Below are positions 7,291 to 37,393 of a stretch of DNA of 64,000 nt, piece by piece; positions within the stretch are counted from its first letter, which is position 1; each line of letters begins with the position of its first letter. The position numbers and the translations under genes are program-made. The DNA is taken from the IMG/VR virus record IMGVR_UViG_3300042691_015660, one strand, 5' to 3'. The notes beneath the pieces are model-generated. The model did no database searches, was not told the DNA's origin, and was given only the letters and a program-made list of their open reading frames with translations. Source of the DNA: a virus.

Positions 7291-7320
7291 AATATCCAAA
7301 TTTATGGCTACCAAAAAAAA

Positions 7321-7328: not shown

Positions 7329-7355
7329 CAATATATTACAATTACGGAGCAGTAA

Positions 7356-10300
7356 ATGGCTGAGTTTAATCTAGGTAGAATTAGATTTGTATGGAAGGGA
7401 GCATGGGTAACTAGCACTTCCTACATCAAAGACGACGTTGTGCGTTACGGCGGTAAAACATATTTGTGTGTGATTGGACACACCGCAGCAGCAGATTTTA
7501 ATACAGACCTAGAAAACATTCCAACTAGATGGAATCAGATGTCTGATGGACAAGAGTGGAAGGGTAATTGGTCAACCAGCACATTTTACAAATTAAACGA
7601 TATTGTAAAATATGGCGGTTATATCTACATCTGTAATGATAGTCATACCAGTGCTGCCACAGCAACATTAGGGTTAGAACAAGATTTGTTTAAATGGGAC
7701 TTGTTTGCCGAAACATTTGATTGGAAAACAGACTGGACTACTAGTACAAGATATAAAATTAATGATATTGTAAAATATGGTGGTATTACTTATATTTGTA
7801 ATCAAGGACATACTAGTGCTGCTACAGCAACATTAGGGTTAGAACAAGATCAAGGTAAATGGGACTTTTTACACAAAGGTATTGATTATTTAGGAACATG
7901 GAGTGGCTCCAGTGTAAGATACAAAATAAATGATGTTGTAAAATACGGAGCAGGTCTTTGGATTTGTACAACTTATCATACTAGTAGTGCTACATTTGCT
8001 GAATCAAATTGGACACAATTTGTCGAAGGTTTAGAATTCAATGACACATGGAATGCGTCAGCAGTTTATCAACCTGGCGACACTATAGCTTACGGCGGCT
8101 ATGTTTACATAAGCAAAACTAATCACACTAATCAAGTACCTACAAGTAATAGTGATGATTGGGATTTATATATCACCGGATTCAAATATCAAGGTGCTTG
8201 GGGACTGCCAAACTTTTATAGAGTAGGTAATGTTGTAAGACATGGAGGATACACTTATGTAGCAGTAGCAGATGCCGAAGCTAGCGGAGCAAATGTTCCT
8301 CCTAACGCAACATACTGGGCACAACTTAATTCTGGTACTGCTTGGAGGGGTCCTTGGGACGGCAATAAAACATATATTTTAGGCGACTTAGTAAAATATG
8401 GTCCTAACAGTTTTATCTGTATTAATCCCCACACATCGTCTACTCCTAACAGACCAGACAATGATACTGCAGGCACATATTGGAATGTATTCACAGCTGG
8501 TTCTGAACTAAGTGTATTAACTACACAAGGCGATTTAGTCTATTATGGCGGCGCCGGACCGACAAGGTTGCCAATTGGAAGAGAAGGCCAAGTTCTAAGA
8601 GTTAGTTCTTCAGCAGCACCGGAGTGGGCATTTTGGGGCATTATAAATTGTATTGCGTATGTCAGTCCAAGCGGTGAAGATTTACCTTGGCCAAATTATG
8701 GACCAACTATAGACAGACCCTTTAAAACTATTCAATTCGCTTCACAGCAAATTGAAAAAGGTATGTTATATCCTGAAGCTTCAAATTTAATTGCTCGAAA
8801 TAGACAATTCATACAAAAAGAAGTAGTGTCGTGGACTAATGCGCAAGTAGCAGGACCTATCTCTCCGTTTACCGGAGCCTTTACTTTTAACTCTGCTAAA
8901 TGCGAAAGAGATATCGGTGTACTTGTTGATGCCATAGTCTACGATCTATCTCACGGCGGTAATAAGCGAATAAGAGATTTCGCTATTTACAACGGCGAAG
9001 AAATAGCTATATTTGCTGTAGGTGAGAAATTACAAACAATCGCAGCCGTTAATTTTGCTCTGTCATTAGTACAAGATATTATTTCAGAAGATACAATTAC
9101 ACCTTATCAAGGAACAGTAACACAGGTTATAGACGCAACCAAAGAACCAGAAACAGCAGCTAGTACAATTGTAACATCATTAATCGGATCTTTGACAGCA
9201 TCAATTAATGCCGTTGAAGATAGTTCTAGTGTGTTTGATTTACAAACGGTCAATTATACAATTAGTGTAAAAACTGGAACATTCAATGAAGTATTACCAA
9301 TTATAGTGCCATCACTAACAGCTATTGTTGGCGATGAATTACGTAGTACTAGAATTGAACCTGCAGGAAGTTTAATAGCAGCAGGAGATGTTACATATAG
9401 CATGGCAGCACTGACAAGACTTGCTGCCATTGTAAGTAATATTGTTCAAAATGTTAGTATTGTAAAAAGTACAGGCAATCCATTAAATCAAGTTACTAGT
9501 AGACCAGCAGGATCAGTAGGATCAGGAACAGCGGCAGCGAATCTGTTTACCACAGCAAAAAATTATATTGATTTTTATGTAAACTCTGTAGGAACTGCTC
9601 CTGCAATGCGAGGTACAAATTACTGGACTACCGATGAAAATTATTACAGGGCTGTTAATATACTAGAAGAAAATAAAGAATTTCTAGCAGAAGAAGCAGT
9701 GGCTTATATTAATGTAACCTATCCTGCGTATGCTGGAACATATGACGAAGCTGCTTGTAAAAGAGATGTAAGAGAATATGTTGATGCTATCAAATATGAT
9801 TTAGTTTATAGTGCCAATGTAGTTGGTAATTACAAAACATTAACAGCAGCAAGACTATATGTAAATGCTGTTAACGGATCTATAGACAAAGATATGTTCT
9901 ATCTAAGAAATGGAACTGGTTTAAGAAATTGTACTACAGCAGGACTAACAGGAACATTAAGTGCTCCAAACATTTACGGAACACGCAGACCTTCAGCTGG
10001 CGCCTATACTAGTTTAGACCCAGGGTGGGGCCCTGATGACGAACGTGTGTGGATTACTCATAGAAGTCCATATGTTCAAAATGTTACTACATTTGGAACT
10101 GCTTGTATTGGATTAAAAGTAGATGGGAATATTCATAATGGCGGAAATGATTCTATTGTGGCTAATGATTTTACACAAGTGTTAAGTGACGGTATTGGTG
10201 CTTGGGTTACTAATCTTGGTCGTGCTGAACTTGTTAGTGTCTTCTCATATTACGGACATATTGGTTATCTAGCAGAAAATGGCGGTAAGATTCGTGCCAC

Positions 10301-13043
10301 TAATGGCAACTCGTCATACGGTACATATGGTACCGTATCCGAAGGCATCGACGTAACAGAAACACCAGTATCTGGAAAAGTAGACAACAGAAGCGTTGAG
10401 GCAAGTATTGAAAGTGTGTTTACCGATTCAGTAGATCAAATTTATAGACTAGAATTTGCCAACGCAGGTATTAATTATAGCACAGCCACATTTACTTTTA
10501 ATGGTCCAGGAGCAAATGCTGCAGCCACTCCAGAATTTAGAGACAACGGTGTCTATTATATTAGGTTAAAAGATTTTGGAGATTCAAGCGGAACTGGTGG
10601 CGCAGGTTATAAAACAATTTCTAATACAGCACAAGCAGGAAATACTACTACAATTACTTTGTCGGCTACCGACACAGCTATTAGTAGTGCCTATGTAGGT
10701 ATGAGGATTTTAATTACCGCAGGTACAGGACTCGGCCAGTACGGTTACATTCAATCATACAACAGCGGAAGTAAAATAGCAACAATTTATAAAGAATCGA
10801 CGGGATCAGCTGGCTGGGATCATGTTAATGCTGGTACAACAATTGCTAGTACATTAGATGTTACCACTGCCTATATTATTGAACCAAGACTGACATTTAC
10901 TAGTCCTGGTTTTACTTCTACAGCAAGGACTATACAAAATGCTGCGTGGGCTGATTCGGTGTTCGGAGATTTAAATGCTACTTATACTAGTGTAGCTTCA
11001 AGTGGGGGATCGGGTGCTGGTGCGGTATTTACTGTAGTTAAATCAGGTAGTTATTACACTACAGTCACATGCACTACACCAGGTTCTGGATATAAAATTG
11101 ATGATACTATTACTATTGCTGGCGCGAATGTAGGTGGAGCAACACCGGCAAATAATATCACAGTAAAAGTTACAAAGGTAGTATCTGGTGGTGTTAATAC
11201 ATTTGACATTAGTGGCACAGCAGCAGGCGGAAGATTTGTAGCTGTAGCAGGTACTACAAGTAGTTACTCAGCAGACGGCGTAACATGGACAGCTGGCGGC
11301 ACAGTAAGTGTGAACGCTATCAAAGTCGCATACGGTAATGGAACATGGATAGCTATCAGTAGTACAGGAACTACTTCTATCAGTACAGATGGCGGTACTA
11401 CATGGACAGCAGGCGGCAGTGCTCCAGCAGGCACTTACACTAATATTGCTTACGGTAATAGTCGTTGGGTAATGATAGGAACTACCACAACAGCAGCTTA
11501 CAGTATTAACGATGGAACAAGTTGGGTAGCAATGACTAGCTTACCAAGTGCTTCGTGGACTAGTGTTGTTTATGGTAATGGTCTATGGGTAGCAGTTGCC
11601 AGTAGCGGCACAACAGCAGCAAGTTCTTCTAACGGAACTAGTTGGACTACAAGAACAATTACTAGCGGCAATTGGGGAAGTGTAACATTTGGTAAAAATA
11701 AATTTGTAGCCTTTCCCGCAGGTGGAACTTTAACTACAGCAGTTTATAGTCTAAATGGAACTACCTGGAGTACTATGACTGTTCCAAGTGCTACTTATAC
11801 TAAGGTAAGTTATGGTCAAGGATTATTTTTTGCTGTTAGTCAGTCTACAGCAGCAGCAACCTCCGAAGACGGATTTAATTGGACTAGTCGTACAATGAGT
11901 ACTAGTGCCAATGGTTATAGCTCTATAGTATTTGGTAATAGTAATAGATCCGGAATATGGTCAGCAGTTCAAGCAGGCGCTGCAGGAACGGTGGCTAGCA
12001 GTACAGTTACGGGTTGTACAACCTACGCAAGAGCATTAGTTACTGACGAAAGAATTAACAGTATCAGAGTAATAGAACCTGGATCAGGTTACAGTAGTGC
12101 TCCTGCGGTAACGATTGTAGATCCAAATAATACTGCCGAAGCAGCTACAGAGGTTCGTAAAGGCGTAGGTGTTTTAGCACAGCCAAACTTTAGCAATAGA
12201 GGAACAGGGTATGAAACAGCACAAGCTTCGGTAACCGGCAACGGAACAATTGATACTTATCAAACTGGTACATTTATTGCTGTTAAGAATCTAACTGCTA
12301 TACCTAGAGCAGGATCTAATGTTCAATTTAGTGGTATTAATGATGTTTACTATAAGCTAGTTAATGTAACTAATCTACTTCCACAAGGAGATAGATATAC
12401 TGCCATTCTACAAGTTAGTCCAGGATGGAATATGGCTGAAAGTGCGGATCACGAAACTGATATTACTATTAGAATTCGTTACAGTCAGGTACGTTTAACC
12501 GGACACGATTTCCTAGATATAGGCACTGGTAACTTTACAAATACAAATTACCCAGGAATACCACTAATTGACCCTGATCCAGATAAAGAAACTAATGAAT
12601 TTGGCGGCGGCCGCGTGTTCTACACCAGTACAGATCAAGACGGTAATTTTAGAGTAGGTGATATTTTTAGTGTTGAACAAAGTACTGGTGTTGCTAGTCT
12701 AAACGCAGAAGCATTTAGTATTGCTGGACTACAAGAATTACAATTAGGCAGTGTGGCGCTTGGAGGTACAGGAGCTACAATTACTGAATTTAGTACCGAT
12801 CCTTACTTTACAGCAGACTCTGACAGTCTTGTACCAACACAGCGAGCAATTAAAGCTTATATTAGTGCTCAAATTGGTAGTGGATCTAGTAGTTTGAACG
12901 TAAATAGTCTCACAGCCGGCATTGTTTACATAGCAGGTGACACAATCACAACGACTACAGGCGCACAAATTAACATAAATACTACGATGAATTTCAACGA
13001 CGGGATAGATGGGTATGCGTTAGCATATAATTTATTCCGTTAA
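7356..13043 (+). CDS. Tail-fibre-like virion protein: 7 CBM-like repeats, beta-helix with two inserted C-x-R-D helical domains, Asp-box beta-propeller
   Basis: Collinear paralogue of 3592 with extra inserts. Six Asp-box/BNR motifs (YSADGVTW, ISTDGGTTW, YSINDGTSW, SSSNGTSW, YSLNGTTW, TSEDGFNW) at about 11.26-11.89 kb. Confidence 0.7.
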   Translation: MAEFNLGRIRFVWKGAWVTSTSYIKDDVVRYGGKTYLCVIGHTAAADFNTDLENIPTRWNQMSDGQEWKGNWSTSTFYKLNDIVKYGGYIYICNDSHTSAATATLGLEQDLFKWDLFAETFDWKTDWTTSTRYKINDIVKYGGITYICNQGHTSAATATLGLEQDQGKWDFLHKGIDYLGTWSGSSVRYKINDVVKYGAGLWICTTYHTSSATFAESNWTQFVEGLEFNDTWNASAVYQPGDTIAYGGYVYISKTNHTNQVPTSNSDDWDLYITGFKYQGAWGLPNFYRVGNVVRHGGYTYVAVADAEASGANVPPNATYWAQLNSGTAWRGPWDGNKTYILGDLVKYGPNSFICINPHTSSTPNRPDNDTAGTYWNVFTAGSELSVLTTQGDLVYYGGAGPTRLPIGREGQVLRVSSSAAPEWAFWGIINCIAYVSPSGEDLPWPNYGPTIDRPFKTIQFASQQIEKGMLYPEASNLIARNRQFIQKEVVSWTNAQVAGPISPFTGAFTFNSAKCERDIGVLVDAIVYDLSHGGNKRIRDFAIYNGEEIAIFAVGEKLQTIAAVNFALSLVQDIISEDTITPYQGTVTQVIDATKEPETAASTIVTSLIGSLTASINAVEDSSSVFDLQTVNYTISVKTGTFNEVLPIIVPSLTAIVGDELRSTRIEPAGSLIAAGDVTYSMAALTRLAAIVSNIVQNVSIVKSTGNPLNQVTSRPAGSVGSGTAAANLFTTAKNYIDFYVNSVGTAPAMRGTNYWTTDENYYRAVNILEENKEFLAEEAVAYINVTYPAYAGTYDEAACKRDVREYVDAIKYDLVYSANVVGNYKTLTAARLYVNAVNGSIDKDMFYLRNGTGLRNCTTAGLTGTLSAPNIYGTRRPSAGAYTSLDPGWGPDDERVWITHRSPYVQNVTTFGTACIGLKVDGNIHNGGNDSIVANDFTQVLSDGIGAWVTNLGRAELVSVFSYYGHIGYLAENGGKIRATNGNSSYGTYGTVSEGIDVTETPVSGKVDNRSVEASIESVFTDSVDQIYRLEFANAGINYSTATFTFNGPGANAAATPEFRDNGVYYIRLKDFGDSSGTGGAGYKTISNTAQAGNTTTITLSATDTAISSAYVGMRILITAGTGLGQYGYIQSYNSGSKIATIYKESTGSAGWDHVNAGTTIASTLDVTTAYIIEPRLTFTSPGFTSTARTIQNAAWADSVFGDLNATYTSVASSGGSGAGAVFTVVKSGSYYTTVTCTTPGSGYKIDDTITIAGANVGGATPANNITVKVTKVVSGGVNTFDISGTAAGGRFVAVAGTTSSYSADGVTWTAGGTVSVNAIKVAYGNGTWIAISSTGTTSISTDGGTTWTAGGSAPAGTYTNIAYGNSRWVMIGTTTTAAYSINDGTSWVAMTSLPSASWTSVVYGNGLWVAVASSGTTAASSSNGTSWTTRTITSGNWGSVTFGKNKFVAFPAGGTLTTAVYSLNGTTWSTMTVPSATYTKVSYGQGLFFAVSQSTAAATSEDGFNWTSRTMSTSANGYSSIVFGNSNRSGIWSAVQAGAAGTVASSTVTGCTTYARALVTDERINSIRVIEPGSGYSSAPAVTIVDPNNTAEAATEVRKGVGVLAQPNFSNRGTGYETAQASVTGNGTIDTYQTGTFIAVKNLTAIPRAGSNVQFSGINDVYYKLVNVTNLLPQGDRYTAILQVSPGWNMAESADHETDITIRIRYSQVRLTGHDFLDIGTGNFTNTNYPGIPLIDPDPDKETNEFGGGRVFYTSTDQDGNFRVGDIFSVEQSTGVASLNAEAFSIAGLQELQLGSVALGGTGATITEFSTDPYFTADSDSLVPTQRAIKAYISAQIGSGSSSLNVNSLTAGIVYIAGDTITTTTGAQININTTMNFNDGIDGYALAYNLFR

Positions 13044-17693: not shown

Positions 17694-18632
17694 ATGACTA
17701 GATCCAAAGCATTTTTTATCAATGGCGGCGCTGGCCGTGTCATCTGTGCGATTCCTGCTCTTGAAAAATACGAACAAGAGTCCGGCGACAAAGATTTTGT
17801 CATCGTCTGCGAAGGCGGTACAGACTTGTTCAAAGGACACCCAACATTAGATGACAGAACTTACGATGTCTGGCACAAAAACTTGTTCAAAGAAAAGATC
17901 CGAGATAGAGATGTAGTAAGTCCAGAACCTTATAGAATTTGGGAATACTATAATCAACATTGTAGTCTAGCGCAAGCGTTTGATATTGAAATTAACAAAC
18001 AAGGTGTTAGAGAATTGCCTAAACCAAATTTATTCTTGTCTAAGGAAGAAATGCTACATGGAAGACAAGTAGTTACCGAAATTAAAAAAACGTTAAAAAA
18101 AGAAAAATCGATAGTATTTCAACCTTTCGGAAGAGGAATTCAATATATAGATGAAAGTTTTGTAGATCCTACTAGCCGAAGTATTGAGTATAAAGATGTA
18201 AAAGCATTAATTAGAAAATTACAGGAAAATGGATATGCTGTAATTATGATGAGCGAATTAAAACTAGACCTTCGTGAAGAAAAATATAAAGATGATGTAG
18301 CAGCGCCTGAAAATGTTGGGCTAAGACAATGGGCGGCTATTATCAAGTACGCAGATCATTTCTTTGGTTGCGACAGCGTAGGGCAACATTTAGCTTATGC
18401 CATGAATAAGACATCCACAGTAGTTCTTGGTTCAACATATCCTATTAATGTTTCTTATCCTAATGTAAGTACTTTTAATATTTTAGATATGGGCGAAGAA
18501 ACTAGAGAATACAGTCCAATAAGAATAGCACCAGATGAAAGAGTTGATCGTAAACATGAGCATATTATGAGTATGACTCCGGATATTCATGACTATGTGA
18601 TTAATACAATTTTAGGAAAAATAGAAAAATGA
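17694..18632 (+). CDS. GT9-like (heptosyltransferase-like) GT-B glycosyltransferase
   Basis: N-terminal GGAGRVICAIPALE (compare GxxGDxxxxxPAL) and C-terminal FFGCDSVGQHLAYAMNK (compare GT9 DSGxxHLAxA). Confidence 0.6.
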   Translation: MTRSKAFFINGGAGRVICAIPALEKYEQESGDKDFVIVCEGGTDLFKGHPTLDDRTYDVWHKNLFKEKIRDRDVVSPEPYRIWEYYNQHCSLAQAFDIEINKQGVRELPKPNLFLSKEEMLHGRQVVTEIKKTLKKEKSIVFQPFGRGIQYIDESFVDPTSRSIEYKDVKALIRKLQENGYAVIMMSELKLDLREEKYKDDVAAPENVGLRQWAAIIKYADHFFGCDSVGQHLAYAMNKTSTVVLGSTYPINVSYPNVSTFNILDMGEETREYSPIRIAPDERVDRKHEHIMSMTPDIHDYVINTILGKIEK

Positions 18633-20449
18633 CACTAGAGATACCAACAATAAATCTAAAAACAGGCTGGGTGGCAGCTATCGCTAGGGGCCATAATGCA
18701 GGAGTATGCCTACTTAAAGACGGAGAAATTGTTTTTAGCATAGAAGAAGAAAGATTAAGTAGACAAAAGTACGACGGCGGCCCTTATGCTAGTATGATGA
18801 AGATTTTAGAATATACAGATAAAATCGATTATCTTGTTATAGCGCATACTCAATCTTTACAAACTACAGCCGGTCGTGTGGATTATACTGGCGACGATGT
18901 CTATACTGGCTTGGCACGTAAATTAAATTTAATTGATCGTAAAGCAAACTTACATAATCATCCGCAAGTAGTAGATTTTAGCTATATGCATCACAAACTT
19001 CATAGTGCTTGTGCTTTTTATCGAAGCGGGTGGACTGATGCTGTTAGTCTCATAGTTGACGGCGCTGGTACATTTATTCAAATACAATACGGAAATAATC
19101 CTATGACTATATGGGAAGTAGAAAGTATTGTAGATTGTGAATATCCTGCTAATTTTAAAACTCTATACAAACATTATGGAACCTTAGAACCAGTTCCCGG
19201 TATTCATTGGGAACAACTAGAATCTGATAATTTTGGAGAACCAGGTCAATACCATGAAGCGCATCTAACTGATCGTGCTGGAATTGTTAAGGTCTATGAA
19301 GGAGTAACAGAATATTGTGGATTTAGCAGTATTGAAGCAGGAAAAACTATGGGGTTATTTCCGTACGGAAAAGAAAATTCTTTTATTCCTAAATTGTTCG
19401 ACACTAGCTCTAAAATTCCATTAAGTAATCGAAATTTAATTGTGCCTAATTACCCAAACGGATCAAAAGTTAATTCAGAATTATTTGAATTTTTAGATGA
19501 AAAAATTTCCGAAGATACTCCCGACGTCACTTATCTTCAAAGTCGTAGAGATCTTGCGTATGCTGTACAGACACAAACACAAGAGCAAGTGCTAAGACTA
19601 ATTCGGAAAGCTGTAGAGATGACCGGAAAAAATCGCGTGGTAATTAGCGGAGGATATGGATTAAATTGTGTAGCTAACTATTGGTATCTTGAACAATTGA
19701 AAGACGAAGGAATTGAAATTTATGTAGAGCCTATTAGTAATGATGCTGGCACAGCCATGGGAGCAGCTTTATTATTTTGGCACGATGTTACTAAGAATTC
19801 AGAAATACAAAAACTAGATACATTATATTTAGGACCTAAATACAAATATTCAGAAAAAGAAATTCTAGAAAAAGTGAATTATGCCGGCGGTGAAGTAATA
19901 GATGCCACTTATGAAGATGTAGTTGAATTATTATCGAAGAAGAATATTGTCAGCATGTTCCAAGGACGTAGTGAAAACGGCCCACGAGCACTAGGTAATC
20001 GTAGTATTCTGTTCGACCCAACATTTAAAGATGGTAAAGATTTTGTAAACATGGTTAAACGTCGAGAATACTTCCGTCCATTTGCTGGTACTATTTTACA
20101 AGACAAGGTACACGAATGGTTTGATCTTAGAGGCATGGATGAAAGTCCTCATATGATGTATGCTGTAAACTGCCAACCTGGTGTAGCAGAAAAAATACCT
20201 AGCGTAATACATGTAGACGGTACTTGTAGAATCCAAACCGTTACACGAGAGCAAAACGCTCATTTCTACAACCTGATAGATGCTTTCTACACAAAAACAG
20301 GAATTCCTATCTTGTTTAATACCAGCTTCAATTTAGGCGGTGATCCGTTAGTTGAAACCCTGGACGATGCTATTAGCACACTAATACGCAGCGATATCGA
20401 GTTTTTGTTCCTCCCAGAGTACGGAAAATTAATAAAAATTTCTAACTAA
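18629..20449 (+). CDS. Carbamoyltransferase, NodU/CmcH/TobZ family
   Basis: HN...EEERLSRQK, HHKLHSACAFY, VDGAG, GKTMGL, GGYGLNCVAN, DAGTAMGAA, GPRALGNRSIL, KRREYFRPFA, HVDGTCRIQTV, NTSFN motifs. ATGA overlap with the GT gene. Confidence 0.92.
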   Translation: MTLEIPTINLKTGWVAAIARGHNAGVCLLKDGEIVFSIEEERLSRQKYDGGPYASMMKILEYTDKIDYLVIAHTQSLQTTAGRVDYTGDDVYTGLARKLNLIDRKANLHNHPQVVDFSYMHHKLHSACAFYRSGWTDAVSLIVDGAGTFIQIQYGNNPMTIWEVESIVDCEYPANFKTLYKHYGTLEPVPGIHWEQLESDNFGEPGQYHEAHLTDRAGIVKVYEGVTEYCGFSSIEAGKTMGLFPYGKENSFIPKLFDTSSKIPLSNRNLIVPNYPNGSKVNSELFEFLDEKISEDTPDVTYLQSRRDLAYAVQTQTQEQVLRLIRKAVEMTGKNRVVISGGYGLNCVANYWYLEQLKDEGIEIYVEPISNDAGTAMGAALLFWHDVTKNSEIQKLDTLYLGPKYKYSEKEILEKVNYAGGEVIDATYEDVVELLSKKNIVSMFQGRSENGPRALGNRSILFDPTFKDGKDFVNMVKRREYFRPFAGTILQDKVHEWFDLRGMDESPHMMYAVNCQPGVAEKIPSVIHVDGTCRIQTVTREQNAHFYNLIDAFYTKTGIPILFNTSFNLGGDPLVETLDDAISTLIRSDIEFLFLPEYGKLIKISN

Positions 20450-21644: not shown

Positions 21645-24600
21645 ATGGCAAAGAAAAGAATTCAAAATTATGTATTTTTACCAGGTACCGCTAGTAGCAG
21701 TAATGCTTATCCTAATGCGTATACTTTACTTGTTAATAATAAATCTTTTATACAAAAAGAAGCTAATACTTACATTAGTAATAGTATAGCTACAGACACT
21801 GCGATTAATTTGAATCCTAACGCAATTGGATTATTAACTAACAATAAAGAATTTTTAAAGAAAGAAATTAGAGCGTACATAGCAGCTAGAGTAGCAGCTA
21901 GTAACGGTCCTTTCGCAGGCTATACATATGATGCCGACAAGTGTGAAAGAGATGTTGGGTATGTCATTGATGCTTATATTTACGATTTAAGATACGGTGG
22001 TAATGAACAAATACGATATGTAGCAGAACAATATTGGTTAGGCGGTACTCCCCAAGTAGACGGAACCAGACAAGCAGAAATTTGGGCGCATACTAAGCTA
22101 AGAGATATTATAACCAAATATGTTTTTACTAGAAGTTTGTATCCTACAGAACAAGTAGCAGGAGTAGTTCAAAGCACAGTTGGTTCTGATGCTGAAACAC
22201 ACATGCAGCAAAGATTAAGTTCCTTATCAGAGGTACTACTAGATGTCATTACTAATGGATTAAGTGTTCTTGAAACTACTAATCTATACCCTAATGCTGC
22301 TAGTCTATTAACTAGAAATAAAGAATTCCTCAAAGACGAAATTACAGCATGGATAGCGACACAAGTAGCAGGAAATATTGCTCCATTTGTAGGGTTTACT
22401 TACGACGCATCTAAATGTAAAAGGGATGTTGGATATGTTATTGAAGCTTACATTTCAGATTTAAAAAACGGCGGAACAGAAAAAACAAGAGAAGCTGCTC
22501 AACAATATTGGTTAGGAGGAGTAGCTCAAGTAGACGGATCTAGAGCAGCCGAAGTAGCAGCACATACAAAACTAAGAGATATTATCGATGATTTTATCTT
22601 AGCAAAACTTCCTTATACTAGTGCGCAGAATCCAGTAGTTACTACTCAAGATGTATCTGGTAGTACTGCTGAAGCAGGAACTACGACTATTATTGCTACA
22701 CTAGCTAGTGTTGTTATTAATACCATTAATTCAGGCCTTATTGCTCTAACAAATTTAAATTTATATCCTAACGCTGCAACCTTATTAACTAACAATAAAG
22801 AATTCCTCAAAGACGAAATTACAGCATGGATAGCGACACAAGTAGCAGGAAATATTGCTCCATTTGTAGGGTATACATATGACGCTGTTAAATGTAAAAG
22901 AGATGTAGGATATATTATTGACGGATATATTTACGACATACGTTATGGAGGGAAAGAAGGAACTAGAGATTCAATAAGTCAATATTGGGTTGGTACTACT
23001 GCACAAGTTGACGGTAATAGACTTCCAGAAGTAGCTGCGCATACTAAATTACGTGATATTATTAATAATAATATTTTACCTAAAGTAGCTTATAGCAGTG
23101 TTCAAAGTCCTGTTACTAGCACACAAAATCTGTCTGGATCAGCAGCTGAATCCGGCGTAACAGCAATAATAACCAGTCTAGCAAGTGTCGTTACTAGTGT
23201 AATAACCAACGGTCTAAATAGTTTACCTTTAGTACCAATTACTCAAAGTCTGCGAAACTTTTCGGGTTACGTGTATGACACTAGTAAATGCGAAAGAGAT
23301 ATCGGATATGTATTAGACGCTTATGCCAATGATTTGCGATTTGGTGGAAATATAGAAACACGATTTGTAGCAAGTAGATACTGGGAATCGGGAGTTCCGC
23401 AAGTCGACGGCGACAGACGTCCGGAAATTAAAACTCACGAGTTTATTAGAGATTTAATTAATAGTTACATTTTTCCGCAGATTGCTTACACTCCCTTACA
23501 AGTTATAGTTTCAAGATACACAAATAATGGTATTACATATGAAACTGCTGCTAGTTCAAGAATTTATAATTTAGAAAATATTCTTACCACTGTGATAGAA
23601 AACGGTTTGTCTAGTATACCAGCAAGAAGTAACGGTGTAACGCAAATTAAGGTACAAGGAAAAATTAATCTTGAAGAAATACTATTAATTACTAATACAA
23701 CTAATAATGAAATTCTTTATAATTTTAGCAGCGCCGATTACGGAGCTGTAGTAGATTATTTTGACACATACAATAGTAACGGATTTAGTAGAGATGACGA
23801 TTATCCAGCATTTCTCCAAACAGCAGATTATGTAACTACAATTACATTAGATATTGATACCAGTACTTGTAGTTCTTCGGATGATATACAAATTTTTGTA
23901 GAAAAGAACGAAATGACCATACGTCCTTGGGACTTTGGTACAGATGCTATTGAACGTATGCGTGTAGCAACACCACAGTCTATGCTTGATGCTGACTTTG
24001 AATACGGGCTACAACCAACAAAATGGCAAGCTATTGGATTGCTCAGACAATACCCAAGCGTATATGAAATTCCAGGAACAGATACTGCAGTTTCGACTGT
24101 AGTTACAGATGCCAGCGTAGGGACAGGAAATGTTGGTGCTAGTTTGATTACAGTTACTACAGCAGGCCCACACGGTTTTACAGTAGGAACTCCGATTACA
24201 ATTAAAGCACTAGCTAACACTATCACTGGGTTCAGCAGAGCAGAAGGTACTTTCTTGGTCAATACTGTACCGACTTCTTCAACGTTTACTTACTATAGTG
24301 CTAGTAAAGTCGGAACATCAAACGGTCAAGTTTTGGCTACTGCTTATACACAATTAAGAAAAGCTTCTTTTTATACAGGAGCTAGTTTAGGAACTCCTTC
24401 TTTTAGCATATATAGTCCAGGAAGTGCTGGAACAATTACTTCAGAGTTCATTACTACATCCGGGTCCGATCAAATAGCATTTATAGGAACTCCTCCTAGT
24501 ATTGGTGCCCCGCTAACAGCTTCTGGAATTAATCCTGGAACACAGGTAACTGGTGTTGTTGGATCTGGCGGTGTAGCAGTACAGACTGGCGCTGCTTCTA

Positions 24601-27600
24601 GTGCTATAATAGGTGATACTACTATAGAAGTAGAAAATGCCTCTGGTATTCTAGAAGGCATGGGTATCGATAATGGAACTGGAACAGCTATTTTTGTAAC
24701 TGGCATATCAGGAACTACTGTTAGTTTAAGTGCTCCATTAGCTGCGCCTAAGATTGGTTCATCAGAAGTTTATACAGGCTTATCAGCTACACTTACTAAT
24801 CCAATTGGTTCAGGTGCGACCTTTAACTTTGCTAGAGTAAACGGATCATATCAATATGTAGGTGTTGCTAATGGAGGATCGAACTATCTAGTAGGTGATA
24901 GAGTAAGAATTCTAGGAAGTCTACTAGGCGGTAGTGATACTACAAACGATATTACTATTACAATTTTAAGTGTAGATAGCGGCGGGTCGGTTGCTAATGT
25001 TGACAGTTCGATTCCTATTGCATTTTCAGGAACAAGTGTAAATGGATCAATAACCTATAGTCCTGTAAGTCAATCGACTACTACAGGATCAGGTATTAAT
25101 AGTACTTGGAATGTAGTCAGAAGTGATACAGGAGATTCTTCAGCAGGCTTGTATTCTGTAACTAATATTAATCCAGGTAGTAATTTTAATCCTGGAGATC
25201 AAATTGTTATTACAGGCGATCTGCTAGGAGGATCAACACCTGAAAATGATTTGTTTATAAATGTTCAAACAGTGGGCGGGTTGGGAGAAATTTTAACATA
25301 CGGAACATTGGGTAGTGCCTTAGGAACCGACACAGTGTTTACTAATTTGTCATGTAGTAATCTTTCTCATTCAGGAGTAGGCGCAGTATTTACAGTTTCT
25401 AGATTTGCAGGAGCGTATACTGCTACAATAACAAGTGGCGGCAGCAACTACAAAGTTGGCAATGTGCTAACTATCACTGGTAGCTCAGTTGGCGGAACAA
25501 TACCAACTAATAACCTAACAATGACTGTTACTCAGATAGACGGTGGAACTGGAGCCATTCAACTTGTGTTAGAATCAGGTAATGCTATATCTGGAAGTGT
25601 ACTTGACTTTATTTCAGCAATATCTTTGAGTGAAGTTACCATAGGAACTATAGCAGATGCTACTTCGATAGCGTATGCTGCTATTGCCGGTATTCAAGTA
25701 GATTTTACTACAGCACACGGATTGGTTCCTGGAGCTAGCATCACTACATCTATTAATAGTAATGGAACTAATCACGGATATGCGGCAGGCCCATTTTTTG
25801 TAGAAAGTGTTCCAACACCAACAAGAATTCGTTACACAGCAAGAACCAGCGGAACAATAGATACATCGACAATATCACTTACAGGAACGGTATACACACG
25901 ATCAGATGCATACTTTATACATAGGCCCTACGACGGCGGCGTACAGTTAGGAACTGGTGGTCCGCAGCATGGTGCTCAAGCAATTCGTATGAGTAAAAAA
26001 TACATTCGTTATCAGTCAGGTAAAGGAGTAATGTACACTACTGGTGCGTTGTTTGCTCCTAGTTATGATTTACAAAGTTTAACAGCAACAGGAACTAGTA
26101 TTGGTTCATACATCACCGTGGTCACCGATGATGTAGATCATGGATGCCAGATCGGCGGAGTAATCAAAATTAAAGGAGTTGTTACTTCTGGATATAACGG
26201 GGAGTATACTGTTACTGATATTATTAATGAAAGACAATTTAGAATACAAGCACAAACTGTGTTAGGAAATGTCTATGCTACTCTATCAGGTCAAGCACAA
26301 ATGAGTCTTGTGCGTTGGCACGGAGCTACTGTAAGGGCCGGCACGTTTGATGAACAAAATGGAATTTTTTGGCAATATGATGGTCAGACTTTAAGTGTTG
26401 GTAGAAGAACTAGTACATTCCAATTAGCAGGCACAGTTAGTATAACTAGAGATACAAATTTAATTACAGGTACAAACACTAGATTTAGAGATCAGTTAAG
26501 TGCCGGCGATAAGATTGTTATTAAAGGCATGACTCATTGTGTTGCTAGTATAGACAGTCAAACAAGTATGACAGTGACTCCTGATTATCGAGGAGCTGTA
26601 GACGCAGTTAACAGCAAACTATGTAAAGTTGAAGACATAATTATACCTCAGGACCAATTTAATTTAGACAGATTAGACGGCAATGGACCTAGCGGATATA
26701 ATGTAGATACATCCACTATGCAGATGATTGGAATTCAATATACTTGGTATGGTGCGGGATTTATTGATTTTATGTTAAGAGGTAGCGACGGTAATTATGT
26801 TTTTGTTCACCGTATTAGAAATAGTAATACTAATACTGAAGCTTATATGCGAACTGGTAACTTGCCGGTTAGATACGAAGTTATTAATGAAGGAGCCAGA
26901 GATAAATTAGCTAGTTCTATTACATCTTCACAAACAACGATTCCGTTAACAGATGCTACCAACTTTCCAAACGAATCCGGAGTAGTATTAATAGATAACG
27001 AACTTGTTGCCTTTACAGGAAAGAGTGGAAATACACTAACAGGATGTACGAGAGCAGCACCTATGACTAATTTTGTAGCAGGAGCATCAAGAACATTTAC
27101 AGCTGGGTCTGCAAATTCACATGAATATAATACTGGAGTAGTGCTTGTTTCTAATACAGTAAGTCCTATTATTAGTCACTGGGGTAGTGCGTTCTTAACA
27201 GACGGAAGGTTCGACGAAGATCGCGGCTACTTGTTTAACTATGCTGCTACAAACGTTAGTATTTCGACAACTAAAAGAACAGCTTTTCTTATTAGACTAG
27301 CACCTAGTGTGAGTAATGCGATTGTAGGAGATTTAGGGGAACGTGAGTTACTAAATCGTGCGCAATTGTTACTAAAGGGTATTGAAATTACAGCAGATAG
27401 TGGTACCGGCGGTATCGTTGTAGAAGGTGTACTAAATCCACAAAATTATCCCGTTAGCCCGTCAGATATTTCTTGGTCTGGATTACAAGGATCAGCACAA
27501 GGTGGCCAACCAAGTTTTAGTCAAATCGCACCTGGCGGTTCGGTAGTCTGGAGTTCAGCAGGCAGTACTTCTGCTACAGCTACTACATTAACATTTCCTA

Positions 27601-28346
27601 CAGGATCTATTACAGCCAGAGCATTAAGTTGGCGTAGTAACAGAAGCCTTCAAAACAATGAAAATTATTTTGCGATTACAGAATCTGATAGGAATACATA
27701 TATAAGTCAAGGACTAGCAGTGGGTGACAGAATTAGTGGTACTGGTATTCCGGCTAATGCTACTATCACACAAATAAGTTTCTGGTACAATGACGGTGTA
27801 TTAGGGCCTCTTTGGTTCGTAGCAATGAATCAAAATGCTAATCAAAACGTAGCTGGTAATTCTACGTTAACTGTAACTAAAGCTTACAATACTACTAATA
27901 CATCTGTGTTGTTCTTCCAAAGCGCAAGTTGGGTTTCTTCTGGAGCAACAACTGGTACTGAAGTAGACGATAATACAAAATACCCAGGCGGTACTTTTGT
28001 GAGCAGTGCTAATGTTCAAAATTATTTTGGCACATCCTACTATCGTGTAACATTTAATCAGTCTAGTATTGGCTCAGCTTTTGTTCCTGGAACTACCACA
28101 CTACAGTTTAAATTTGGTATTCCGCCTTATGCGCAGCCTGGAGAAACTGTATTTTCATTCGTTGCTGGTCCGGGAACAACTAGTGTACTAGACTTAAGCG
28201 AACTTAAAGAACTTACAAATACCACACTAGGCGGAAGAGGAACTTATCCTAACGGACCTGATGTACTAGCTATTAATGTGTATAAGGTAACCGGAGCAGC
28301 GATTAATTCTAATATTGTTTTACGTTGGGGCGAAGCTCAAGCTTAA
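21645..28346 (+). CDS. 2233-aa virion structural protein with four phycobiliprotein-like C-x-R-D helical repeats
   Basis: GGAG RBS. N-terminal ~158-aa helical repeats, central Gly/Thr-rich 'GG.TP.NDL.I.V' repeats and HG(F/L) beta modules, C-terminal beta-rich region. Confidence 0.7.
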   Translation: MAKKRIQNYVFLPGTASSSNAYPNAYTLLVNNKSFIQKEANTYISNSIATDTAINLNPNAIGLLTNNKEFLKKEIRAYIAARVAASNGPFAGYTYDADKCERDVGYVIDAYIYDLRYGGNEQIRYVAEQYWLGGTPQVDGTRQAEIWAHTKLRDIITKYVFTRSLYPTEQVAGVVQSTVGSDAETHMQQRLSSLSEVLLDVITNGLSVLETTNLYPNAASLLTRNKEFLKDEITAWIATQVAGNIAPFVGFTYDASKCKRDVGYVIEAYISDLKNGGTEKTREAAQQYWLGGVAQVDGSRAAEVAAHTKLRDIIDDFILAKLPYTSAQNPVVTTQDVSGSTAEAGTTTIIATLASVVINTINSGLIALTNLNLYPNAATLLTNNKEFLKDEITAWIATQVAGNIAPFVGYTYDAVKCKRDVGYIIDGYIYDIRYGGKEGTRDSISQYWVGTTAQVDGNRLPEVAAHTKLRDIINNNILPKVAYSSVQSPVTSTQNLSGSAAESGVTAIITSLASVVTSVITNGLNSLPLVPITQSLRNFSGYVYDTSKCERDIGYVLDAYANDLRFGGNIETRFVASRYWESGVPQVDGDRRPEIKTHEFIRDLINSYIFPQIAYTPLQVIVSRYTNNGITYETAASSRIYNLENILTTVIENGLSSIPARSNGVTQIKVQGKINLEEILLITNTTNNEILYNFSSADYGAVVDYFDTYNSNGFSRDDDYPAFLQTADYVTTITLDIDTSTCSSSDDIQIFVEKNEMTIRPWDFGTDAIERMRVATPQSMLDADFEYGLQPTKWQAIGLLRQYPSVYEIPGTDTAVSTVVTDASVGTGNVGASLITVTTAGPHGFTVGTPITIKALANTITGFSRAEGTFLVNTVPTSSTFTYYSASKVGTSNGQVLATAYTQLRKASFYTGASLGTPSFSIYSPGSAGTITSEFITTSGSDQIAFIGTPPSIGAPLTASGINPGTQVTGVVGSGGVAVQTGAASSAIIGDTTIEVENASGILEGMGIDNGTGTAIFVTGISGTTVSLSAPLAAPKIGSSEVYTGLSATLTNPIGSGATFNFARVNGSYQYVGVANGGSNYLVGDRVRILGSLLGGSDTTNDITITILSVDSGGSVANVDSSIPIAFSGTSVNGSITYSPVSQSTTTGSGINSTWNVVRSDTGDSSAGLYSVTNINPGSNFNPGDQIVITGDLLGGSTPENDLFINVQTVGGLGEILTYGTLGSALGTDTVFTNLSCSNLSHSGVGAVFTVSRFAGAYTATITSGGSNYKVGNVLTITGSSVGGTIPTNNLTMTVTQIDGGTGAIQLVLESGNAISGSVLDFISAISLSEVTIGTIADATSIAYAAIAGIQVDFTTAHGLVPGASITTSINSNGTNHGYAAGPFFVESVPTPTRIRYTARTSGTIDTSTISLTGTVYTRSDAYFIHRPYDGGVQLGTGGPQHGAQAIRMSKKYIRYQSGKGVMYTTGALFAPSYDLQSLTATGTSIGSYITVVTDDVDHGCQIGGVIKIKGVVTSGYNGEYTVTDIINERQFRIQAQTVLGNVYATLSGQAQMSLVRWHGATVRAGTFDEQNGIFWQYDGQTLSVGRRTSTFQLAGTVSITRDTNLITGTNTRFRDQLSAGDKIVIKGMTHCVASIDSQTSMTVTPDYRGAVDAVNSKLCKVEDIIIPQDQFNLDRLDGNGPSGYNVDTSTMQMIGIQYTWYGAGFIDFMLRGSDGNYVFVHRIRNSNTNTEAYMRTGNLPVRYEVINEGARDKLASSITSSQTTIPLTDATNFPNESGVVLIDNELVAFTGKSGNTLTGCTRAAPMTNFVAGASRTFTAGSANSHEYNTGVVLVSNTVSPIISHWGSAFLTDGRFDEDRGYLFNYAATNVSISTTKRTAFLIRLAPSVSNAIVGDLGERELLNRAQLLLKGIEITADSGTGGIVVEGVLNPQNYPVSPSDISWSGLQGSAQGGQPSFSQIAPGGSVVWSSAGSTSATATTLTFPTGSITARALSWRSNRSLQNNENYFAITESDRNTYISQGLAVGDRISGTGIPANATITQISFWYNDGVLGPLWFVAMNQNANQNVAGNSTLTVTKAYNTTNTSVLFFQSASWVSSGATTGTEVDDNTKYPGGTFVSSANVQNYFGTSYYRVTFNQSSIGSAFVPGTTTLQFKFGIPPYAQPGETVFSFVAGPGTTSVLDLSELKELTNTTLGGRGTYPNGPDVLAINVYKVTGAAINSNIVLRWGEAQA
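22317..22872 (+). repeat. 79-bp perfect direct repeat (22317-22395 = 22794-22872)
   Basis: AATAAAGAATTCCTCAAAGACGAAATT...CCATTTGTAGGGT occurs twice, 477 bp (159 codons) apart. Confidence 0.9.
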
Positions 28347-33946: not shown

Positions 33947-36900
33947 ATGGCATTAAGTTCACCAGGCGTAGAAGTCAAAGTTATTGACGAATCTTTTTAC
34001 ACTCCAGCTGAACCTGGAACAACACCATTAATTATTGTTGCTTCAGCGGAGAACAAATCTAACGCGGCAGGCACTGGAATCGCTCCAGGCACAACTAAAG
34101 CTAATGCCGGAAAAGTTTACTTACTAACTAGCCAGAGAGATTTAGCAGATACTTTTGGAGATCCGATCTTCAAAACTGATGCTGGTAATAATCCTATCCA
34201 TGCTGGCGAACAGAACGAATATGGATTACAAGCAGCATATAGTTTGTTAGGAGTCAGTAATCGTGCTTTTGTAGTACGTGCCGATATTGATTTATCACAA
34301 TTAGATGCTAATACAGATCCTCCAATCGCTTTACCTTCTAACGGCACACATTGGATGGATACCAGTACTACATTGTTTGGTATTTTTGAATGGAACGGTG
34401 CTCCAATTAGCACCACAGGCGGTCAAAAATTTGCCAATAAAGTTCCCTTAGTAATCACTGATTCAACTAAAGTTGATCTTTCTACAGAAGGTCCTTTGGG
34501 TAGTATTGGTGCTATTGGCGACTATGCCGTTGTGATGACAGATGTAGATTCAGATACACCTGCTTTGACAACCAGTCATCCAGGCACATTATGGTATAAA
34601 AGTAAAGGGAACCCTAACTCAGGTGTTCCAGCAGGCACATGGGTCAATGTAGGCAGTGAAGATTGGCACAAATCTATCGCTGTGGTAGCAGGAACAGTAT
34701 CTAATCCAGCATTCACAGCAGGCGACAATTTTTATATTAACGGTGTATTAATTACTGCCAGCGGAACTACTGTTAGCAGTTTAGCCACAGATATTAATAA
34801 TGCGTTTGGAGTAGGGGCTGGTCCTATCTATGCTCAAGCATATAATAATAAATTAGAAATTTATACTAATGGCATGGCATCAAGTGGGGGCGACAGTACA
34901 CAATCTAATGCTGTTATTATTGCTGCTGGTACTCAAGGAGTTTTAGTTGCTGCTAGTGTTGCATCAAGTTCCTTAGGTATCAAAACAGGCACATATTATG
35001 GTGCTAAAATGCAGATTAGTAAACACACTGAAGTTCCTCAGTGGAAAAGTAATACTACAGGACCTCGTCCAACTGGATCTATCTGGGTTAAAACTACAGA
35101 GCCTAATTTAGGAGCACGATGGAGAGTTAAACGTTGGAATGCATCTACTGAAGCATGGGTAGCTGTAGAATCACCGATCTATTTAAATGGGCATGAAGCA
35201 CTCTTTAATTTAGATAAAGCTGGAGGCGGTACAAATCTTTCAACTGGTGCGTTATACGTTCAAGCAAATTATACCGAAGATAGTGGCACTGATGCTACAC
35301 CTATGTTAGGTAATTTTAAAATTTTTAGAAGAGCAGCAGCCGGAGAATGTTCAATCGTAAGTGCAAAAATCACAGCTTCTACATTTACTAATGCTACTAG
35401 TTATACTTTTAGAATTGCTGAAAGTTTAGTAGGAACTAGTGTATTAGGCGACTACGATGAAGATGGCACATATAGCTTCAAGACAGTAAGCTTCCAAGGT
35501 GCTGGCGCAGCAGATGATAATGCTACACGAGTAGCAACTGCTGTTAATGCTGCTGGATTCAGAAATATTGTAGCAAGTGTTGATAGCCAAAATCGTTTAG
35601 TAATTTCTCATACAAGGGGCGGCGATTTCAGACTAACAGAAGGAACAAATACTCCGTTAGTTGACATGGGATTCACAGCTTATGATTTCGAACCTAGTAA
35701 TAATACATTCGGTACAGGTACCGCTAATCTATCAGATGCTCCTGCTGGGGATCCGCTACATGATTTTGTAGCCAGTTTATGGCATCCTTTAGTTTATGTT
35801 TCTAACGGTGATGCTCCAGGCAGTTTGACAGATGACGGACGTTTGTGGTACAGTAGTGTAATTGACGAGATTGATATTATGATTCACGATGGCAGTGATT
35901 GGGTCGGTTATCGATCAGCTACTGCTCCGTACTTTGCTAACGGCACCGATCCAAATGGTCCAATTGTAGGCGCCACTGTTCCTGAAACACAAAGTGATGG
36001 CACAGCATTAGTAACTGGAGATTTATGGATCAGTACTGATGACATCGAAAACTTCCCTCAAATCTACAGATTTAATAATGAATTAACTGCTCCAATTACA
36101 AAACGTTGGGAATTGTTAGATAAAACAGACCAAAGTACAGAAGATGGTGTTTTATTCGCAGATGCTCGTTATAACACAGCTGGAGCGAATAGTGATGAAG
36201 CAGGCACTATTGTAGATTTATTATCTAGTGACTATGTAGATCCAGACTGCCCAGACCCTGCTTTATACCCAAGAGGTATGTTGCTATGGAATCTACGTCG
36301 TAGTGGTTTCAATGTAAAACGTTTTGTTAGAAATTACGTCGACATCGCTGCTGATAATCCAAGATCTGGTGAAGCAATGGAAGCATACTATCCACATCGT
36401 TGGGTTACATCTAGCCCAAATCAAGGAGACGGATCTGGCAGCTTTGGTCGTAAAGCACAACGGTCTATTGTAGTTAAAGAACTACAAGCCACAGCTAATG
36501 CTAACCAAGATATTAGAGACGATGAAAGTAGAATCTTTAATCTAATTGCTTGTCCAGGTTATCCAGAGTTAATTGGGGAAATGATTAGCTTAAATTATGA
36601 TAGAGGCTTAACAGCACTAGTTATTGGAGATAGTCCGGCTAGATTAACTCCTGATGCTACATCGTTACTAGCATGGGGTTCAAATCAAAGACTAGCTTTC
36701 GAAGATAACGACTTAGGAGCTGTGAGTTTTGACGAGTACATGGCAATGTTCTATCCATGGGGCTTCACTAGCGACAATTTTGGTAACAATGTAGTTGTTC
36801 CTCCAAGTCATATGATTTTACGCACGATTGCGTTAAATGATCAGGTTGCTTATCCTTGGTTTGCTCCAGCAGGTATTCGTAGGGGCGGTATTACTAATGC

Positions 36901-37393
36901 TACTGCGGTAGGCTATGTTGATAGTCAAGAAGGCGAATTTAGATCAGTCGCTCTAAACGTAGGACAACGTGATACACTATACGAACAAAAAATTAATCCA
37001 ATTACTTTCTTAACAGGAACAGGATTAGTTAATTATGGACAGAAAACTCGTGCTAAAGGCGCTAGTGCTCTTGATCGTATCAATGTAGCTCGTTTAGTAA
37101 TCTATCTACGCAGTCAATTAAACAAATTAGCTAAACCATATATCTTTGAACCTAATGATAAACTTACACGCGATGAAATTAAACTAGCAGCAGATAGTTT
37201 ATTGTTAGAATTAGTAGGTCAAAGAGCGTTATATGATTTTGTAGTTGTCTGCGATGAAAGCAACAACACTCCAAGTAGAATTGATCGTAACGAGTTGTAT
37301 CTTGACATCGCAATTGAGCCAGTTAAAGCAGTTGAATTTATCTATATTCCATTACGCTTAAAGAACACTGGCGAAATAGCAGCGTTAGGTTAA
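33947..37393 (+). CDS. gp18: Contractile tail sheath protein
   Basis: LSSPGVEVKVIDES N-terminus. C-terminal YPWFAPAG.RRG, RDTLYEQKINPI, GQKT...SALDRINVARL, FEPND..TR, VCDESNNTP..IDRNEL, EFIYI. Confidence 0.93.
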   Translation: MALSSPGVEVKVIDESFYTPAEPGTTPLIIVASAENKSNAAGTGIAPGTTKANAGKVYLLTSQRDLADTFGDPIFKTDAGNNPIHAGEQNEYGLQAAYSLLGVSNRAFVVRADIDLSQLDANTDPPIALPSNGTHWMDTSTTLFGIFEWNGAPISTTGGQKFANKVPLVITDSTKVDLSTEGPLGSIGAIGDYAVVMTDVDSDTPALTTSHPGTLWYKSKGNPNSGVPAGTWVNVGSEDWHKSIAVVAGTVSNPAFTAGDNFYINGVLITASGTTVSSLATDINNAFGVGAGPIYAQAYNNKLEIYTNGMASSGGDSTQSNAVIIAAGTQGVLVAASVASSSLGIKTGTYYGAKMQISKHTEVPQWKSNTTGPRPTGSIWVKTTEPNLGARWRVKRWNASTEAWVAVESPIYLNGHEALFNLDKAGGGTNLSTGALYVQANYTEDSGTDATPMLGNFKIFRRAAAGECSIVSAKITASTFTNATSYTFRIAESLVGTSVLGDYDEDGTYSFKTVSFQGAGAADDNATRVATAVNAAGFRNIVASVDSQNRLVISHTRGGDFRLTEGTNTPLVDMGFTAYDFEPSNNTFGTGTANLSDAPAGDPLHDFVASLWHPLVYVSNGDAPGSLTDDGRLWYSSVIDEIDIMIHDGSDWVGYRSATAPYFANGTDPNGPIVGATVPETQSDGTALVTGDLWISTDDIENFPQIYRFNNELTAPITKRWELLDKTDQSTEDGVLFADARYNTAGANSDEAGTIVDLLSSDYVDPDCPDPALYPRGMLLWNLRRSGFNVKRFVRNYVDIAADNPRSGEAMEAYYPHRWVTSSPNQGDGSGSFGRKAQRSIVVKELQATANANQDIRDDESRIFNLIACPGYPELIGEMISLNYDRGLTALVIGDSPARLTPDATSLLAWGSNQRLAFEDNDLGAVSFDEYMAMFYPWGFTSDNFGNNVVVPPSHMILRTIALNDQVAYPWFAPAGIRRGGITNATAVGYVDSQEGEFRSVALNVGQRDTLYEQKINPITFLTGTGLVNYGQKTRAKGASALDRINVARLVIYLRSQLNKLAKPYIFEPNDKLTRDEIKLAADSLLLELVGQRALYDFVVVCDESNNTPSRIDRNELYLDIAIEPVKAVEFIYIPLRLKNTGEIAALG

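Follow-up and report, generated by a model that had tools for sequence, protein, structure and literature searches.

The DNA analysed here is a 64,000-nucleotide stretch of the genome of an uncultured, marine-type phage (IMG/VR record IMGVR_UViG_3300042691_015660), referred to throughout as the window, in which an open reading frame (ORF) on the forward strand, P0001, encodes a protein of 2233 amino acids (aa). The N-terminal quarter of this protein comprises four tandem repeats that resemble phycobiliproteins (PBPs). PHROG annotation, the RefSeq annotation of homologues and the position of the gene suggest that the P0001 product is a putative virion protein. Specifically, residues 664-1796 match phrog_5838 ('virion structural protein', E = 3.5e-272), and the repeat region matches phrog_4527 (E = 2.1e-51), phrog_5342 (E = 3.6e-36) and phrog_701 (E = 2.5e-30). 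A tblastn search with residues 700-2233 returned 161 records, nearly all from cyanophages, including proteins of Synechococcus phages S-CAM1 and S-CAM3 annotated as 'virion structural protein', with 47-48% identity at 84-89% coverage. The gene is flanked on one side by giants of the baseplate or tail-fibre type (106-13043) and on the other by gp15, gp13 and the sheath gene, and both the profile matches and this position within a structural module place its product among the T4-like cyanophage tail-fibre and baseplate giants (PHROGs 4527, 5342, 701 and 5838). The protein was otherwise found on one 30-kb ENA contig, and megablast searches of 50,697 phage records with the repeat region and with 20 kb of the window gave no match, nor did an exact 40-mer search of IMG/VR.

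The domain boundaries were assigned with a hidden Markov model (HMM) of the repeat, against which the domains score 231-270 bits each (Table 1). The sequence-only reading of the window had described four repeats of ~158 aa; four tandem domains are indeed present, but the fourth is shorter, lacking the first ~21 profile positions, which correspond to the N-terminal helix, and the description is to that extent slightly generous. The other copies share 37-55% identity with repeat 1, and 34 columns of the alignment are invariant. Each repeat contains a single cysteine, as that reading had claimed and at the codons it gave (21942, 22416, 22893 and 23289), and there are no others in the first ~730 aa, the next being residue 742. 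All four cysteines fall within the sequence K-C-[EK]-R-D-[VI]-G-Y...D-[LI]-[RK]-x-G-G, and no instance of K-C-[EK]-R-D-[VI]-G-Y was found outside the repeats in the six reading frames of the window.

Table 1. Features of P0001 and its repeats, with coordinates in the window
Feature	Coordinates	Strand	Basis
Whole ORF P0001, giant putative virion structural protein	21645..28346	+	phrog_5838, structural-module position
Orphan copy of the first helix (residues 20-51)	21702..21797	+	HMM positions 2-33, i-E 1e-3
Phycobiliprotein-like repeat 1 (residues 54-210)	21804..22274	+	270 bits to repeat HMM
CXRD motif, repeat 1 (C100-E-R-D103)	21942..21953	+	Aligned to Cys84-x-Arg86-Asp87 of phycocyanin alpha
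Phycobiliprotein-like repeat 2 (residues 212-369), the modelled copy	22278..22751	+	Repeat HMM; AlphaFold2 model of residues 207-374
CXRD motif, repeat 2 (C258-K-R-D261)	22416..22427	+	Motif search, repeat HMM
Phycobiliprotein-like repeat 3 (residues 372-528)	22758..23228	+	268 bits to repeat HMM
CXRD motif, repeat 3 (C417-K-R-D420)	22893..22904	+	Motif search, repeat HMM
Phycobiliprotein-like repeat 4 (residues 524-659), without first helix	23214..23621	+	HMM positions 22-157, 231 bits
CXRD motif, repeat 4 (C549-E-R-D552)	23289..23300	+	Motif search, repeat HMM
C-terminal three quarters, repeat-free	23622..28346	+	phrog_5838, phrog_1645; homologues in S-CAM1 and S-CAM3

Relationship of the repeats to phycobiliproteins

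The repeats are very probably divergent, very distant homologues of PBPs, nearest in sequence to phycocyanin alpha, and the homology is detectable by profile search of the PDB, by hhalign and by genome scans. When a profile of the four repeats of P0001 was searched against the PDB, phycocyanin alpha accounted for nine of the ten matches, at marginal E-values of 0.17 to 1.6. With a profile of 148 diverse repeats, the best match was to phycocyanin alpha 6jpr_A at an E-value of 9e-5, and ~34 of the 37 matches were to PBPs. Since the signal rises with the diversity of the profile, it behaves as real remote homology. The alignment with 6jpr_A matches profile positions 6-64 to phycocyanin-alpha residues 37-104, which span helices B to E and include Cys84, Arg86 and Asp87. 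The Cys, Arg and Asp of the repeats align with these three residues, the spacing of the bilin motif given in the sequence-only reading is correct, and the CXRD motif lies on helix E in all four repeats. Comparison of the 148-repeat profile by hhalign with 26 CpcA and CpcB sequences drawn from cyanobacterial loci gave a probability of 94% and an E-value of 1.4e-7 over 95 columns. Additionally, a scan of the six reading frames of four whole cyanobacterial genomes with the repeat profile matched only ORFs of 164-196 aa; one of these was mapped and lies inside the cpcA locus, the others being taken as PBP genes from their size.

The predicted structure is in keeping with this relationship. An AlphaFold2 model of repeat 2, calculated from a 148-sequence alignment and without templates (pLDDT 95.4, pTM 0.90), has the globin-like, all-helical fold of the PBP type, and a model of two tandem repeats was obtained with a pLDDT of 91.0 and a pTM of 0.76. 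All of the matches listed by Foldseek against the PDB (ranks 1-50) are of the PBP type, with TM-scores of 0.46-0.60, and comprise phycoerythrin, phycocyanin, allophycocyanin, cryptophyte biliproteins, the bilin domain of ApcE and two engineered fluorescent proteins derived from PBPs. In an exhaustive VIA fold search of 48,161 chains, the first seven places were taken by allophycocyanin, phycoerythrin and ApcE bilin domains (Z 13.6-11.1), below which came RsbR-type and globin-coupled sensor globins (Z 8-11) and ordinary globins (Z 6-8). A fold search of the ESM Atlas returned only generic sensor-globin regulators of the RsbRD_N type, with a TM-score of 0.6. The earlier proposal that the repeats are globin-fold, phycobiliprotein-like domains is thus upheld by the sequence profiles, by hhalign and by the structural searches, in which PBPs fill the best PDB matches.

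The N-terminal X-Y hairpin, which PBPs use for alpha-beta heterodimer and ring assembly, was not found in the repeats. The structure and profile alignments start at PBP residue ~26-40, and only ~10 residues precede the first long helix of each repeat; the hairpin is therefore considered to be missing. The repeats are assigned to the PBP/bilin-globin superfamily as divergent members, and not to the antenna family proper.

Conservation and distribution of the repeat family

A search of 1.84 billion representative proteins with the four-repeat profile identified 1121 proteins at E ≤ 0.001, of which 368 reach E ≤ 1e-30, and the repeats are therefore not a chance resemblance. Nearly all of these proteins are giants of 1500-6400 aa, with between 1 and 34 repeat stretches apiece. 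Residue conservation was counted in ~1508 repeat copies taken from the best 150 proteins, the copies being ~25% identical to one another. Conservation of the cysteine across homologues was a point on which the sequence-only reading had staked its proposal, and the residue proved to be Cys in 97% of copies, with Arg(+2) at 97% and Asp(+3) at 99%. Further near-invariant residues of the family are an Asp at Cys+14 (in essentially all copies), a Tyr at Cys+30 (98%), an Asn and a Gln, all of which are absent from PBPs.

Among isolated phages, the repeat family occurs only in phages of marine and freshwater picocyanobacteria, in baseplate, tail-fibre or structural giants. A tblastn search of 50,697 phage genomes with two repeats as the query retrieved 163 records, every one of them from a phage of Synechococcus or Prochlorococcus, and the named structure matches in BFVD are without exception Synechococcus phage proteins annotated as 'tail', 'tail fiber-like', 'long tail fiber' or 'structural'. 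The repeats of P-HM2 lie in a 4454-aa 'gp7 baseplate wedge' protein, whereas in S-PM2 two giants carry them, one being the 3792-aa 'short tail fiber protein'. No strong member of the family was found among 301 cyanobacterial genomes with the same profile that gives E-values of 1e-10 to 1e-31 with phage genomes.

As a separate observation on the S-PM2 RefSeq record, 15 tRNA genes are annotated at NC_006820.1 168556-170625, inside the frame of the 3792-aa 'short tail fiber protein' and under a single locus tag; because this frame has no stops, the tRNA coordinates or tags look misplaced.

Comparison with known bilin-binding and sensor globins

The phage repeats share with CpcA and other PBPs (PF00502) a globin-like fold, aligned helices B to E, and the sequence K-C-x-R-D-[IV]-G-Y at the Cys84 site with the same spacing to G-G, CpcA being both the best PDB sequence match and the mapped match in a cyanobacterial genome. 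Without the X-Y hairpin, the repeats also lack the canonical alpha-beta pairing of PBPs. Between helices F and H they have ~30-40 extra residues, part of which form a short beta hairpin; they also carry the additional invariant Asp at Cys+14 and Tyr at Cys+30, and score below the Pfam threshold. Moreover, PBPs are free subunits of ~160-185 aa encoded by cyanobacterial or plastid genes, whereas the phage domains are arrayed in tandem in a 2233-aa phage protein.

ApcE, which attaches its bilin autocatalytically, likewise has a PBP-like domain inside a large multidomain protein, and comparison of the repeat model with ApcE chain 4xxi_A gave a Z-score of 12.1 and an rmsd of 2.3 Å over 113 residues (full-length ApcE chains, Z 11.1-11.7). 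In ApcE, however, which is part of a cellular antenna, one bilin domain is followed by linker repeats of another fold, whereas in the viral protein it is the PBP-like domain itself that is repeated.

The CXRD sequence is the bilin-attachment motif of PBPs and of the bilin biosynthesis-associated globins (BBAGs) BBAG-1 and BBAG-3, and for the latter two the attachment of several bilins has been shown to need no lyase (Rockwell et al. 2023, PMC10151467). Compared with the phage repeats on the basis of their published description, BBAG-1 and BBAG-3 are also CXRD-retaining, distant paralogues of PBPs outside the antenna (PMC10151467), and they are the best precedent for the way in which the phage domains might work. 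The BBAGs are single-domain cellular proteins encoded beside genes for heme oxygenase (HO) and pre-PcyA, whereas the phage domains are tandem and viral, and no such neighbourhood of HO and pre-PcyA or ferredoxin-dependent bilin reductase (FDBR) was met among the window ORFs scanned. The non-heme sensor globins, namely RsbR N-domains, globin-coupled sensors and photoglobins, resemble the repeats in overall fold (Z 8-11) and illustrate that a globin can act as a signal-input module, but have no CXRD motif, give no sequence-profile match and score lower than PBPs.

Bilin binding and alternative functions

The reading favoured here, at a probability that falls just short of even, is that each phage domain still binds a linear tetrapyrrole, such that phage particles would carry bilins. 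In this scheme, the invariant Cys would form a thioether with the bilin, while Arg(+2) and Asp(+3) would bind its propionates and pyrrole nitrogens, in the manner of PBPs and of the self-attaching BBAG globins. The infected cyanobacterial cell would supply the bilin, the attachment of which would be either autocatalytic or aided by a phage homologue of the CpeT-type lyases. This would give the virion a pigmented fibre, for which the most likely use would be a light sensing that gates adsorption, with shielding as a second possibility. Bilin binding is favoured by the fact that the three residues best kept from the PBP ancestor are the bilin-contacting CXRD triad (PMC10151467), and a single cysteine in each domain, retained in 97% of the copies of an extracellular protein that have otherwise diverged widely, speaks for a chemical function. 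The known isolated carriers infect bilin-rich hosts, which was counted in favour also.

A number of observations weigh against this reading. The Pfam model PF00502, comparison with which had been proposed in the sequence-only reading, is unlisted at thresholds as lax as E ≤ 1, both with the complete protein and with residues 1-740 as the query, and since the model does not detect the repeats, they lie outside that family as curated. The Foldseek E-values for the repeat 2 model are weak, at 0.01-0.17. The invariant Asp, Tyr, Asn and Gln that are specific to the family could close the pocket as a polar network that also uses the Arg and Asp of the motif, and up to 34 tandem copies in fibre-like giants have the look of a purely structural spacer. 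In addition, the terminase and sheath of the window phage resemble those of jumbo phages of heterotrophs.

The remaining adverse points concern the bilin-related genes of the phages themselves. Repeat and CpeT were scored in 27 cyanophage genomes, and FDBR and HO also in 15 of these. The link that had been drawn between the repeats and phage enzymes of bilin synthesis was not borne out, in that neither HO nor FDBR tracks the repeat; both are encoded by P-SSM2 and S-SSM7, neither of which carries it. Conversely, cpeT does co-occur with the repeat, which is present in all 16 cpeT-positive phages, while none of the seven repeat-less phages carries cpeT. In four phages the repeat is present but cpeT does not reach significance, and three of these have sub-threshold candidates; a CpeT-like gene is listed by Sullivan et al., by column order apparently in P-SSM7. 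The raw association (16/4/0/7) has a one-sided Fisher value of 3.7e-4, but on a TerL (large terminase) tree of 25 phages there are three changes per trait and three independent pairs, for which a sign test is not significant. Because significance is lost once relatedness is allowed for, the association with cpeT is a lead, and not evidence of function. Similarly, in S-PM2, S-RSM4 and S-CAM1 the gene for a repeat-bearing giant is preceded, at ~1-1.5 kb and on its own strand, by a long-form cpeT, but these three phages form one clade and the adjacency therefore counts as one observation. Within the window, an HMM of 11 phage CpeT sequences found nothing in six frames, and Pfam scans of ~40 ORFs revealed no HO, FDBR or CpeT. 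The role of phage cpeT has been called unresolved (PMC3037559), and the benefit of cyanophage bilin genes unclear (PMC2984593). Among the phage bilin-related genes, cpeT is the one worth following, and the idea that HO and FDBR supply the bilin is not supported.

Some details of these loci were recorded in passing. In S-PM2 (163952-177267), S-RSM4 (162121-177047) and S-CAM1 (62808-75592), a full-length cpeT is followed by a repeat-bearing giant of 3700-4500 aa; a 2OG-Fe(II) oxygenase gene, a small ORF and a 199-aa ORF, respectively, lie between the two, and the three giants share the N-terminal start M-P-L-T-R-L-D-N-L. In the window, positions 46604-48783 encode two proteins, one assigned to DUF3050 (E = 1.8e-69), which also weakly matches the heme-oxygenase-like 'Iron-containing redox enzyme' family, and the other a radical SAM protein. 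The pair is situated between gp32 (45606-46565) and a RecA/UvsX homologue (48841-49890).

The principal alternative, a serious one that is nevertheless put somewhat below an even chance, is that the repeats are derived from PBPs and chromophore-free, a captured host PBP gene having come to encode a rigid helical 'bead' by which fibres or appendages of the baseplate are made longer. The Cys, Arg and Asp, together with the family Asp, Tyr, Asn and Gln, would then lend stability to the apo fold, either as a polar network in its interior or through a disulfide between subunits. Arrays of 1 to 34 copies in giants of 2000-6400 aa annotated as tail fibre, baseplate wedge or structural are consistent with such a bead, as are the loss of the X-Y hairpin, the four extra near-invariant residues that PBPs do not have, and the existence of phages that make bilins yet have no repeat (P-SSM2 and S-SSM7). 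The tandem model is confident also, although a rod-like arrangement does not follow from its scores alone, and the literature searched is silent either way on pigment in cyanophage particles. However, a small residue in a structural role should drift to Ala, Ser or Val, and the position is instead Cys in 97% of ~1500 copies that are only ~25% identical, while the three residues in contact with bilin are the very ones best preserved since the PBP ancestor (PMC10151467). The family is, furthermore, found only in phages of bilin-rich hosts, and the lack of any Cys before residue 742 other than the one in each domain argues against intradomain disulfides.

It is improbable that the conserved Cys/Arg/Asp/Asp/Tyr site holds not a bilin but another partner, for example heme, a metal ion or a ligand on the host surface, with the domains acting as receptor-binding modules. 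Globin folds do bind varied ligands, the family has invariant acidic and aromatic residues of its own, the proteins are annotated as tail fibres and the phage backbone resembles that of phages of heterotrophs; but the conserved residues include no His that could ligate heme, the triad among them is the one that serves bilin in the nearest relatives, and receptor-binding domains are usually fast-varying and located at fibre tips, whereas the repeats are conserved and internal or N-terminal. Improbable too is convergence, whereby a generic sensor-globin or helical-bundle repeat with neither common ancestry nor bilin has come to share the short sequence C-x-R-D-x-G-Y: sensor globins of the RsbR and globin-coupled types do score not far under PBPs (Z 9-11), the ESM Atlas returned RsbRD_N-type regulators, the Foldseek E-values are weak, PF00502 gives no score and AlphaFold may favour PBP geometry owing to the motif, but the similarity grows with profile diversity, spans 60-95 columns and so extends far beyond the motif, is recovered by hhalign independently of AlphaFold, places PBPs in the first seven positions of the exhaustive fold search, and in cyanobacterial genomes picks out only ORFs of PBP size, one of them mapped to the cpcA locus.

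Light-dependent adsorption

With bilin binding as the favoured reading, the light sensing suggested above can be set against published adsorption data. Phages P-HM1 and P-HM2 do not adsorb to their hosts in the dark, whereas P-SSM2 and P-SSP7 do (Liu et al., PMC6628666), and S-PM2 needs light to adsorb (PMC6628666). The repeat is present in the light-dependent S-PM2, P-HM1 and P-HM2 and absent from the dark-adsorbing P-SSM2 and P-SSP7, such that all five phages fit. Because the light-dependent phages fall in one larger clade, this match is regarded as a hypothesis and not as evidence. The fuller proposal, that the repeats form a biliprotein photoreceptor array on the baseplate or fibres, gating adsorption by light and loaded by an orphan CpeT acting as lyase, is considered unlikely; if true, it would explain the light-dependent adsorption of cyanomyoviruses.

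Affinities of the phage and neighbouring genes

The large terminase of the window phage (41803-43401) shares 55% identity with that of the Pseudomonas jumbo phage PA5oct and 50% with that of Sinorhizobium phage Phosso, but only 32-36% with those of 25 cyanomyoviruses, and the 1148-aa sheath (33947-37393) is closest to those of Phosso, Atu_ph07 and PA5oct. Classification of the phage as a T4-like cyanomyovirus was accordingly rejected. To judge from these gene comparisons, its backbone belongs to the PA5oct/Atu_ph07-like group of T4-related jumbo phages, and modules found in marine cyanomyoviruses recur in several of its structural giants, which suggests that the phage is a mosaic or else represents a cyanophage lineage not yet isolated. 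Since the terminase and sheath are not cyanomyovirus-like, we can only infer a bilin-rich host, putatively a picocyanobacterium, from the cyanophage-like structural modules.

Several other genes of the window were noted. A fusion of a cytidylyltransferase and a cupin (CTP_transf_like and the C-terminal domain of mannose-6-P isomerase) is encoded at 50602-51366, and a 'putative citidylyltransferase' (T4-GC190) has been listed as a cyanophage core virion protein (Sullivan et al. 2010); the fusion hints at a cyanophage affinity of the window phage. The structural region also contains many genes of the sugar or modification type (17694-20449, 51363-52988, 53882-55158 and 61955-63998), including those for a GT9-like glycosyltransferase, a carbamoyltransferase, a GT8 glycosyltransferase, two FkbM-type methyltransferases and one other methyltransferase, and a nucleotidyltransferase, the products of which may modify the virion or the host surface. 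Finally, a protein with the N-terminal domain of a TnsA-like endonuclease (39539-39976; E = 3e-22), encoded among small ORFs just upstream of the terminase gene, may be a homing or mobile endonuclease.

Significance

Work on the BBAGs extended the PBPs from subunits of cellular antennae to bilin-binding globins of heterotrophs (PMC10151467). The repeats add a phage-specific branch of the PBP superfamily, present in up to 34 copies within virion giants and with the bilin triad as its best conserved feature, of which no earlier description was found in the literature searched. Should the domains prove to be chromophorylated, the question of why cyanomyoviruses carry cpeT and bilin genes would become directly testable, and the repeats would be a source of small, self-contained biliprotein tags. 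To our knowledge, this would also be the first pigment or photoreceptor built into a virus particle. If, on the other hand, the domains are apo proteins, they would still exemplify clearly the recruitment of a photosynthesis protein of the host as a building block of the virion.

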